This document shows positions 21,470-23,634 of a DNA stretch of 53,938 nt, one piece after another. This stretch comes from Klebsormidium nitens (taxonomy: Eukaryota > Plantae > Klebsormidiophyceae): NCBI GenBank assembly GCA_000708835.1, contig DF237546.1:1-53938 (forward strand), written 5' to 3'. The notes under the pieces were generated by a model. It ran no database searches. It was not told the origin of the DNA and saw nothing but the letters and a program-made list of their open reading frames with translations. A program made the translations under genes and the position numbers. Every line of letters starts with the position of its first letter. The stretch's first letter is position 1.

Positions 21470-23634
21470 ATGGCAAGAGGCCGCCCTCATGGCCGGTCCA
21501 AGTCTGACCACAGAGTTTGTCAGGCAGCTCAACATGCACGCGCTGCTGAGTATAGGGAGAGGATCGCCATCAGTGCTGAGCAGCAAGAGGCGCGGATAGC
21601 GGCTGTGAACGCAGAATGCACAGTAGAGGATGCCCCTCGTAGGCGGCGGGGCCAAAAGCCTAAGGATCCGAAGACAAAGTCGGGGGCTGCTCGGGTGTCA
21701 GTACGGGGCCGTTCTTCCAAAGCATCTGGCAGTGCAAAGAAGAAAGCAAAAAAGCGCCTGGAACATGCGCTTGGCAAAGCTGCGGGCAGAGGTGAGCTCT
21801 GTCGCATCTGCTCCTGCTTTGAGTTATTTGAATTGCTTAGCAGAGGCCAAGCAATAGCTGGGAGCGTTGTGCTAAAACGGCAGAGTCCGTCAGAGAGGCG
21901 AAACGTGAAGGGGAGGGTGGAGGAGGGGGCTGGCTCTGCAGGGTTGTACCGAGAAGTGTGTCTCTTGTTTCTAGAAGGCTGAAGGGGCATTTCTTCGTAC
22001 GTGTTGTCAGCTGCAAAGACTGAGCAATCCTAGCAGGCATGACCTCCCCTGCACCAAGAACATGTTTTTCTCTTGAGTGATAGAAGGTTGAATCTAGGTA
22101 CATGCTGTCAATTACAAACATGTGGGGCATGGCCGTCCCTTTATGATGGTGATCCAAGGTTCTACCTCTTTCTTTCTAGAATACTAATTCCCATATCTTG
22201 GTACATGCCATGAGTTACACCAGAAAAGCAGTGGTATGGCCGCGCCTGTGGGGATGTACGAAGGTTCTTACCTCTTTCTTTTAAGAACACTAATCCCCCT
22301 TTTCTGGTACATGCCATGAATTACAACAGAAAGGCAGCGGTATGGCCGGGACTGTAGGGATGTACCAAGGTTCTACCTCTTTCTTTCTAGAACATTAATT
22401 CCCATTTCTTGGTACAGTCATGAGTGACAACAGAAACGCAGTAGTATGGCCGGGCCTGTAGGGATGTACCAAGGTTCTGCCGCTTTTTTTCTAGAACACT
22501 AATGGTTATTTCTTGGTACATGCCATCACTCAAAGCAAGCTGGTGGGGATGGCCGTCCCTGGCATGTACCAAGAACATCCGCTTTCTCTTCAGAACAATA
22601 CAAGGTTTATCATTGGTACGTGCTGTCAGCTACAAACTACTAATCCCCTTGCAGGAAATACGGGCATGATTCAAATGGGCGGGAGTACGTTGCGGCACGC
22701 TGCGAGTTTTGCATGCCTCCTCAAGTTCGGACTCCAGGTTCTTACCCAACCTCTGCTCATCTTCTTTGCAGACCCACATACTCTTTGCTGCCACGAGTGC
22801 GGCGCTACCGCGGAGTTCGGGCTGCGAGGAAGCAAGTGGGGGGGGGAGGTCCTGTACTTATGCAGAGGGCATGTTCTGCCTGGCTGCTTCCGCATCGACA
22901 CTGACCGCGCAGGTGAGAGCATTCAGGGGCTGCCTTGAGTTGGGTCTGAGGTTCATGCAACATTCATAGCTGCCCCCCTGGTCTTTAGCGATGAGTCTTT
23001 CTAGTAGAGTGTCGAAACTTACTTGCTCTGTATGCTCCTGCAGATTGGGTAGAGGACCGAGAGATGTGCCGCTTGAGAGCAGAAGAGAGAAGACTTGAGA
23101 AGGAGCTGCGGGAACTGGGAGGGGCCTCGTTCGCAGCGGAACCAGCGGCAGGTGAGCGCGCGGTGTTGTTTGGGCCAGTCTGATTCATTTGCTCGTGTTC
23201 AAACTGGGGGGCAATGACTTCCCTTCTATGCGTTGTGTTCCTTCTTCTATTTGCTGATATGTGATGCTTCTGTTATAGCAGAGCAACCCAGCGCTTCACC
23301 GTGCGCTTCCGCACCTTGGAAGGAGTTCCAGAGTACAAGGGATTGGGTTGCGATGCCCATGAAGCGATCGCTCATAGGTAAGGCACTTTGATTGCAGCTC
23401 TGTTCTGCTGCAATCGTTTCTTGAGCAGTTGGCCAGAGCATGCAAACACTTGAAGAGCACTTGGCTTGTCCCCATGACACTTCTTGTGTCTTGCATGAGG
23501 ATCCTGTGATCCGCTTTGAATCAGTCCAGCTGGGTCGGGCATCTCGTCTGAATGTGTAGTCCTCTCTTGCAGCTATGCTGCTAACGATTGGTGGCGTTGA
23601 GAGCAATCCCGGACCGCTCTCAAATGAAGAAGAG
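21470..23634 (+). CDS. Cassette A N-terminal part: basic MARGRPHGRS domain, Cys/His (EsV-1-7-like) motif, coiled coil, 2A-like peptide; spliced, partly degenerate
   Basis: Basic ORF from ATG 21470; exon ~22771-22911 (CHECGATAEFGLRG...YLCRGH); exon ~23043-23151 (RLRAEERRLEKELREL); exon ending 23377; exon from 23573. The last two splice to RSLIAMLLTIGGVESNPGP. The exons adjoining the repeat array are uncertain. Confidence 0.55.
21945..22620. repeat. Tandem array of ~7 tripartite palindrome units (~100-bp period)
   Basis: For example gtaccaag-gttctacctctttctt-tctaga-acattaattcccattt-cttggtac at ~22364-22417; several copies are degenerate. Confidence 0.9.

Follow-up and report, generated by a model that had tools for sequence, protein, structure and literature searches.

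The genomic stretch analysed here (53,938 nucleotides of contig DF237546.1 of Klebsormidium nitens, assembly GCA_000708835.1, forward strand; called the window below) carries two related gene cassettes. Cassette A is a spliced gene in which a 2A-like (StopGo) peptide lies between a basic leader and a predicted nucleoside triphosphatase (NTPase)-nuclease cargo. Cassette B repeats the leader and the peptide and is followed by exons of a likely helicase. The main subject of this work is the 2A-like peptide of cassette A, at which the ribosome likely releases the leader and continues into the cargo.

Cassette A and its spliced 2A-like peptide

The 13 exons of cassette A (Table 1) join into a single open reading frame (ORF) of 896 amino acids (aa) without internal stops, and the joined model is identical to P0001, given by its source as a K. 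nitens hypothetical protein. Transcript evidence comes from contigs of 4 of 21 listed runs, which belong to four studies; these runs are treated as RNA solely on the basis of spliced joints and a poly(A) tail, none of them being on record as RNA. All 12 joints of the cassette were seen, 11 of them in the four runs and one in three, and the joint 23377/23573, which lies within the 2A-like peptide, is present in every run and study. Contig X9-18 (2235 nt) covers exon 1 to exon 11 across the peptide and has the length of the spliced model 21556-27123, contig X11-7 extends from exon 1 into an NTPase exon, and contig X1 shows a poly(A) tail after 28133. The preliminary description of this DNA had proposed one spliced ORF and a transcript across 21470-27923 that includes the 23377/23573 junction; the 12 joints, the open frame identical to P0001 and the contigs that link leader to cargo bear this out. 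Two of its boundaries had to be corrected: the intron and peptide placed in a feature from 23280 are real, with 23282 as the first base of the exon, and the downstream exons, which do stay in frame, begin at 23800 instead of 23801. An in-frame TAG (24046-24048) was considered as a nonsense mutation and rejected; splicing removes it with the GC-AG intron 24020-24473, which leaves the gene intact.

The intron inside the peptide has a GTAAGG donor, a TTGCAG acceptor and phase 1; its ends, its phase and the spliced peptide agree, as claimed earlier, with both the letters and the contigs. The peptide corresponds to residues 218-237 of P0001, with the G|P bond at 236/237. The intron splits an Ala codon 14 residues before the P, and the downstream exon holds 14 of the 20 peptide residues, including the whole core. 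The peptide is thus formed by splicing, but the special meaning once attached to the intron was overstated. No alternative joint is listed there among the joints from the four runs and, as read from the sequence, retention of the intron would end the frame within it. The homologous intron of cassette B interrupts the same codon (69% identity, z 6.8). The 2A intron appears to be constitutive and older than the cassette duplication, with no sign of a regulatory role.

In all six frames of the window there are two ExNPGP motifs, one in cassette A at 23599 and one in cassette B at 31778 (31778-31795), and 0.0008 matches to the expanded core would be expected there by chance. The core octamer (D/G/C/N)(V/I)ExNPGP is in frame in both cassettes. 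Over the 18 codons ending at P, cassettes A and B have 7 identical codons, 8 silent differences and 3 residue changes; after P, the next six codons all differ and DNA identity drops to 22%. These codons and the conservation in the family place the constraint on the motif at the protein level, in agreement with its earlier description as 2A-like. The G in place of D, once described as a natural variant, is a common working variant (Li et al. PMC12846837; infectious flacherie virus row in PMC8623073), and the G-variant of the infectious flacherie virus 2A is confirmed in the available part of PMC8623073. In the one open 896-aa frame, the peptide is preceded by a low-confidence linker and followed by a compact SAM-like domain. 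A hydrophobic, Leu-rich upstream helix is also present: among 31 family motifs, positions -16, -15, -12 and -11 are occupied by L (28), I (23), L (26) and L (30), respectively, and in the model of the paralog P0003 a predicted helix (209-218) precedes G226|P227. The element is a real 2A-like peptide and likely a natural StopGo in a spliced, DNA-encoded, probably mobile gene family of a streptophyte alga.

Near the 5' end of cassette A (21234-21461), RNA contigs with differing letters and loose ends were found, which suggests that this region is common to several expressed paralogs.

Table 1. Features of cassettes A and B in the window
Feature	Position	Strand	Basis
A, exon 1: ATG and basic leader, aa 1-107 (K+R 27%, isoelectric point 11.4)	21470-21791	+	contigs, protein
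A, intron 1, with tandem 54-bp dyad repeat units	21792-22771	+	
A, exon 2: putative Zn motif C-x2-C...C-x2-H, aa 114-141	22772-22912	+	
A, exon 3: predicted coiled coil	23044-23151	+	helix 152-180 in model of paralog P0003
A, exon 4: linker and upstream half of 2A block (conserved W 23344-23346 through S-L-I)	23282-23377	+	
A, phase-1 GT-AG intron in 2A helix, homologous to cassette B intron	23378-23572	+	
A, exon 5: L-L-x-I-G and core octamer (23593-23616)	23573-23634	+	
A, predicted skip point in exon 5	G 23611-23613 / P 23614-23616	+	
A, exon 6: SAM-like header, aa ~244-316; GC-AG intron follows	23800-24019	+	
A, exon 7: linker; likeness to NACHT-type paralog P0007 stops near exon end	24474-24557	+	
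A, exons 8-10: STAND-type P-loop NTPase and helical region	24982-25591, 25902-26195, 26437-26521	+	
A, exons 11-13: predicted PD-(D/E)xK nuclease region, stop codon	26825-27123, 27366-27524, 27713-27923	+	
B, leader exons 1-2 with intron 1	29584-29905, 30893-31036	+	splicing by homology
B, 2A: exon, phase-1 intron, exon	31546-31611, 31612-31751, 31752-31915	+	splicing by homology
B, likely distal cargo: primase-like and UL9-like helicase exons	35991-42443	+	63-79% identity to paralog P0010

Leader, cargo and the leader-2A protein family

The leader of P0001 (25.9 kDa, isoelectric point 9.7) is made up of a basic exon 1 and a region with a C-x2-C...C-x2-H motif, and both its composition and this motif agree with the basic Zn-motif leader proposed earlier. 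A scan of the P0001 sequence revealed no hydrophobic N-terminus or signal peptide. The leader/Zn region gives a weak EsV-1-7 hint in Pfam (E 0.098) and no fold was assigned to it. Single-sequence structure prediction of P0001 was unusable (predicted local distance difference test, pLDDT, 37.5). A model of the paralog P0003 was built from a 43-sequence alignment (mean pLDDT 72); long helices come first, then a small β-rich Zn region and a coiled coil, from which a low-confidence linker leads to the 2A helix and, last, a compact domain. The latter (pLDDT about 96) is best matched by the SAM domain of LEAFY (4ude_B; Z 8.7, root-mean-square deviation 2.1, 75 aligned residues), followed by that of ASK3 (Z 6.6); a Foldseek comparison of the P0003 model with PDB and BFVD returned nothing at E 0.001. 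The identification of a SAM-like header is a moderate match. P0001 and P0003 share 37% identity over 97 aa in this region.

The remainder of P0001 resembles AAA_35/PDDEXK_3 and fungal Crinkler clusters of the Atlas (features 0.96-0.98, TM 0.6-0.7), and bacterial AAA_35-PDDEXK clusters score equal to the fungal Crinkler cluster. Pfam gives a weak nSTAND3 match on the cargo (E 0.006). There is a Walker B motif at 478, and the conserved acidic residues D801 and E813 are putatively catalytic by comparison with known motifs. The NTPase and restriction-fold nuclease proposed earlier agree with the fold clusters, fungal Crinkler clusters being among the look-alikes, and nuclease activity of the cargo is predicted. 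However, the term "Crinkler toxin" was overstated: besides lacking a signal peptide, P0001 has no Pfam Crinkler match at E 0.05 and no LxLFLA(K) motif. By its sequence, the cargo is Crinkler-RHS-like but not a Crinkler in the strict sense. Zhang et al. (2016) reportedly defined this Crinkler-RHS (CR) type, composed of NTPase, helix-turn-helix (HTH) and restriction endonuclease (REase) regions.

The preliminary description overlooked that the peptide belongs to a protein family, in which leader and 2A also head other cargos, including that of the adjoining replication-type gene. A search with exon 1 found 19 proteins, 14 of them with the motif; the other five are at most 209 aa long, four running into intron 1 and one losing the frame in exon 2. 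A search of 1.84 billion representatives with P0003 gave 51 matches; taxonomy was looked up for 10 of these, and all 10 are from K. nitens. Among 68 fetched proteins, 30 contain 31 motifs; the paralog P0022 carries two in tandem, 151 residues apart, and the Zn motif precedes the 2A in 22 of the 30. N, P and G are invariant in the family, while position 12 is occupied by G (21), C (7), A (2) or E (1), position 13 by V (19), I (11) or L (1) and position 19 by P (22), W (7), L (1) or F (1). The permissive core [DGCN][VI]ExNPG[PMW] is matched by 25 of the 31 motifs, and the strict core has 18 matches in 17 proteins. The motif is present in 27 of 29 leader-bearing proteins of at least 250 aa and in all 13 that combine the leader with SAM similarity.

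Sequences after the G|x bond fall into three groups (10, 5 and 5 members) and 10 singletons. P0001 and the NACHT-type P0007 share leader, 2A and SAM-like header, and their enzymes switch near residue 345; this header, common to both and to other members, is exchanged among enzymatic C-termini. The proteins P0004-P0006 come from independently assembled transcripts and have leader, 2A and NTPase in one ORF. No locus related to the leader was found in metagenome contigs. A DNA pattern for L-L-x-I-G-[G/C]-[V/I]-E-x-N-P-G was found in 17 viral contigs, always in open frames (224-1499 aa), and 3 of 11 scanned viral frames have a picorna-like RNA helicase.

The region 29575-31044, at the start of cassette B, has 76% DNA identity to 21461-22920. 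The leader of cassette B likely runs on into the primase-like/UL9-like exons (35991-42428 by homology to P0010), as judged from the paralogs P0010, P0014, P0018 and P0036; P0010 (1945 aa) has leader, 2A and primase/helicase cargo in one annotated protein. A UL9-like helicase cargo is common to P0010, P0018, P0036 and cassette B. The cassette B cargo matches Herpes_ori_bp in Pfam (E 2e-9) and, in the Atlas, clusters of mainly Nucleocytoviricota and fungal sequences; its other part is presumably a primase, given its motifs and PriCT-bearing Atlas clusters. No PDB sequence match was found for P0010, and no locus related to the helicase in viral contigs. The locus tags of P0010 and P0007 follow directly on each other in a single scaffold; a helicase cassette is therefore paired with a SAM-NTPase cassette in at least one further place.

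Proposed ribosome skipping and its alternatives

In the mechanism proposed here, the conserved 2A-like peptide would make the ribosome release the 236-aa basic leader at Gly236, and translation would continue from Pro237 to give a separate 660-aa SAM-NTPase-nuclease protein. The hydrophobic helix and the G-G-V-E-x-N-P-G sequence would work inside the exit tunnel in the manner of viral StopGo. The skip is probably incomplete, and some full-length fusion and some leader-only product would also be made. It is rather likely that StopGo releases the leader and that translation goes on into the cargo.

Published data bear on this proposal. The available parts of Li et al. (PMC12846837) describe StopGo as common in RNA viruses and rare in cellular genes; the core variants (D/G/C/N)(V/I)ExNPG, with rare W, are enriched in RNA viruses and at least about 90% active, and full activity can need more than 30 residues. 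The preprint of Snell and Matreyek (2026, PMC13405545), whose main text does not name the genus, reports a pooled screen in HEK293T cells, and the 20-mer of cassette A is found in its file 3 (row 1662), with scores of 2.85 (red), 2.72 (green) and 2.99 (infrared). The green score is nearer to those of the four viral controls (2.54-2.68) than to those of the five non-skipping controls (3.07-3.45). By reporter design, a skipping peptide would lose green but retain red and infrared, a reading that is our own and not the authors'. Nine exact family 20-mers are present in the screen: five in skipping classes (P0003, P0004, P0022, P0039 and P0052), one classed as falloff and three as "Nonskipping". 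Another paralog from K. nitens is also given as skipping. By comparison, 14.86% of bacterial peptides are in skipping or reduction classes. The screened 20-mers leave out the conserved positions -25 to -20.

Several points weigh against skipping in cassette A. Its 20-mer was classed as "Falloff Only" and its red and infrared scores are at the level of the non-skipping controls; P0002, P0009 and P0017 are the family members classed as non-skipping, and eukaryotic peptides of the falloff and non-skipping classes grouped with those of bacteria. The class labels are weak either way: they were assigned by a support vector machine whose training set was a few dozen samples in HEK293T cells, and the authors call for each peptide to be confirmed individually. 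Li et al. (PMC12846837) found no natural use of StopGo by plant viruses. Within the family, six of the 31 motifs depart from the permissive core, P0050 (328 aa) is without motif, and in P0030 (875 aa) the annotated leader is joined onward without the 2A exon. In a leader-only tree (29 rows; P0022 was excluded for its shortness), no fewer than three changes are required for W and two for C, and these repeated residues may come from exon exchange among paralogs, not from independent substitution. The contigs cannot rule out an internal promoter.

The falloff label of the exact 20-mer would fit an attenuator, in which the leader is freed and the ribosome often fails to resume, so that much leader and little nuclease or helicase is made. 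One family peptide was classed as "skipping with reduced protein", such peptides are proposed in PMC13405545 as regulators of expression, and a low output would suit a nuclease. However, the downstream (infrared) score is not lowered, contrary to what fall-off would give by reporter design, and long cargos stay open behind the motif; an attenuator is considered unlikely. The same low probability is given to a 2A that was active ancestrally but is weak or inactive in the cassette A copy, which would be made mostly as a 101 kDa fusion. The mixed reporter outcomes of the paralogs, two of three channel scores near the non-skipping cluster and the six drifted motifs speak for such a decay. On the other hand, cassette A fits the expanded core exactly, its gene is intact and expressed in four studies, and the tested 20-mers omit positions -25 to -20 of an element whose full activity can need more than 30 residues.

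The motif might also involve no recoding at all and serve for cleavage by a protease or as a binding helix, or it might simply mark where a duplicated block ends, comparable to the HVLVVVP junction of oomycete Crinkler headers. Modular Crinkler genes keep conserved junction motifs at recombination points (PMC5289972, available in part), and the DNA identity of the 2A exon (75%) is not above that of nearby introns (69-79%). Nevertheless, conservation falls at G|P, which is 7 codons inside the exon in cassette A and 41 in cassette B, the tolerated substitutions are those of StopGo, and it is only about 110 residues later that P0001 and P0007 switch enzymes, which makes such a reading quite improbable. 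It would be very surprising if the cargo were made mainly from its own promoter and start codon, the 2A being incidental. Leaderless cargo relatives (P0020 and P0021) are annotated as complete ORFs, Met261 and Met335 are in frame and contigs cannot reveal starts, but single contigs run from leader to cargo and the one-ORF structure of P0004-P0006 also opposes a separate start.

The proposed skipping element can be compared with known 2A systems. It shares with viral StopGo (PMC12846837, PMC8623073) the core, the rare W at position 19 and the hydrophobic helix, and L-L-x-I-G-G is also found in viral contigs; unlike viral StopGo, it is located in nuclear DNA, contains a spliceosomal intron and belongs to a multi-copy family of a streptophyte alga. 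As in APE-type non-LTR (long terminal repeat) elements (Odon et al. 2013, PMC3708506) and other eukaryotic mobile elements with 2A (PMC13405545), the 2A would lie in a mobile-element ORF before an enzymatic domain. In contrast to non-LTR elements, the K. nitens genes have many introns, DNA-replication and NTPase-nuclease cargos, and a 2A placed after a folded leader of ~230 aa; no Pfam match to APE endonuclease or reverse transcriptase was found in 24 window frames or in the sets of 19 and 20 proteins. The NLR/death-domain 2As of sea urchin (Roulston et al. 2016, PMC4981915) are also found in a cellular multigene family before a STAND-type NTPase, and their partial skipping may yield two forms. 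However, the sea-urchin 2A is an N-terminal secretion signal, whereas the K. nitens 2A is internal, behind a basic N-terminus that has no hydrophobic signal. The cargo resembles the CR type NTPase+HTH+REase (PMC5289972), present also in free-living eukaryotes, in having an exchanged header, a P-loop NTPase and a restriction-fold nuclease, but it has a SAM-like header instead of LxLFLAK/ubiquitin-like header or signal peptide, with leader and 2A ahead of it. Leader and 2A before CR proteins were found in no paper on CR proteins.

If true, skipping in cassette A would represent a natural StopGo on plant-type ribosomes, in DNA and not in RNA or retroelements, in a close algal relative of land plants. 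With G, C or A at position 12 and P or W at position 19, the ~30 naturally occurring variants are a ready panel for studying skipping rules in plant systems. No published description of the leader-2A-cargo family was found in literature searches, which left subscription journals uncovered. Two untested Klebsormidium rows in the available part of Rao et al. (PMC12338488) have positions that fit P0022, and the genus is absent from the abstract and searched passages of Baral et al. (bioRxiv 2026.09.24.754024). Already known are 2A peptides, the G variant, cellular 2As, CR-type proteins and, from a supplementary table, the cassette A peptide itself; such cataloguing lowers the novelty of the sequence but not that of the architecture.

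Probable mobile-element context of the cassettes

The upstream region and exons 1-5, with leader and 2A, behave as a reusable expression module. Duplication would have placed copies of it ahead of several kinds of cargo, namely a SAM-NTPase-nuclease, a SAM-NACHT-like NTPase and a primase/UL9-like helicase. This module is likely part of a virus-like or transposon-like DNA element of the alga. Twenty motif-bearing proteins were assigned to K. nitens loci on different scaffolds; such dispersed copies, together with the replication cargo and the adjoining primase-helicase genes, lead us to regard the family as probably part of a mobile DNA element. The likely cassette B cargo resembles the primase/UL9-like origin-binding helicases found in large DNA viruses and in endogenous remnants of such viruses (Herpes_ori_bp, Nucleocytoviricota clusters), and nucleocytoplasmic large DNA virus genes have been reported in the genus Klebsormidium (PMC5294986); unlike those helicases, it contains introns and would be fused behind leader and 2A. 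Intracellular DNA is the likely substrate of the nuclease, either that of competing elements or in the element's own movement, and a role as a secreted toxin is less likely.

It is tentatively proposed, with somewhat less confidence than its opposite, that an undescribed class of intron-containing DNA mobile elements uses the StopGo leader as a plug-in module, which drives a helicase, captures NTPase-nuclease effectors and frees the cargos. Self-comparison of the window gave no terminal repeat pair and, against a mobile element, no element ends, target-site duplication, integrase, capsid or packaging gene was identified. The arrangement suggests how mobile elements gain cargo genes behind one promoter and leader and, if the proposal is true, offers a route to new effector genes that does not break cargo function. 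Another K. nitens protein, with an Ndc10 domain match, has a 2A-like peptide classed as skipping (PMC13405545, supplement 4, row 25), and several DNA elements of the alga, not just one, may employ StopGo.

A dyad unit of 51-56 bp is present in 27 copies (21946-22619, 30168-30737, 32394-32447, 35342-35673, 39485-39537 and 52780-53825). It has 8-bp inverted arms at nearly fixed spacing, a central palindrome and a variable interior, and the arrays have a period of 90-115 bp. As DNA, the units fold weakly (-1 to -12 kcal/mol); by their sequence they rather resemble sites bound by a protein, which could be the UL9-like protein, the leader or a recombinase. No locus related to the unit was found in metagenome contigs. 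A 34-bp element, 88% identical between its two copies (21025-21058 and 28607-28640), lies upstream of both cassettes and is a possible shared promoter element. Between the cassette B 2A and the helicase exons there is a HIRAN domain (32871-33242, +; E 5.6e-6, above the cut-off).

To the right of cassette B, an intronless frame of at least 925 aa (44622-47399, +) adjoins a gap of Ns and matches Prim-Pol (E 1e-7) and a DUF5906/D5-like helicase (E 7e-18); it is a second virus-like replication gene. Two intronless frames without family match (42547-43218, +, 223 aa; 43281-43829, -, 182 aa) lie between the helicase and Prim-Pol genes. Beside the largest repeat array, Cys-rich frames (47704-52737, -) give a weak Pfam CxC4 match (E 0.15) and have motifs reminiscent of a KDZ transposase; they could be a mobilising gene or a separate element. 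PHROGs yielded weak or neighbouring matches only. To the left of the element-like region lie a multi-exon host gene of ordinary appearance, WD40/EMAP-like by eye (2800-11020, +), and an intronless frame of 328 aa (14211-15197, -) that starts like a signal peptide and has no match in Pfam.

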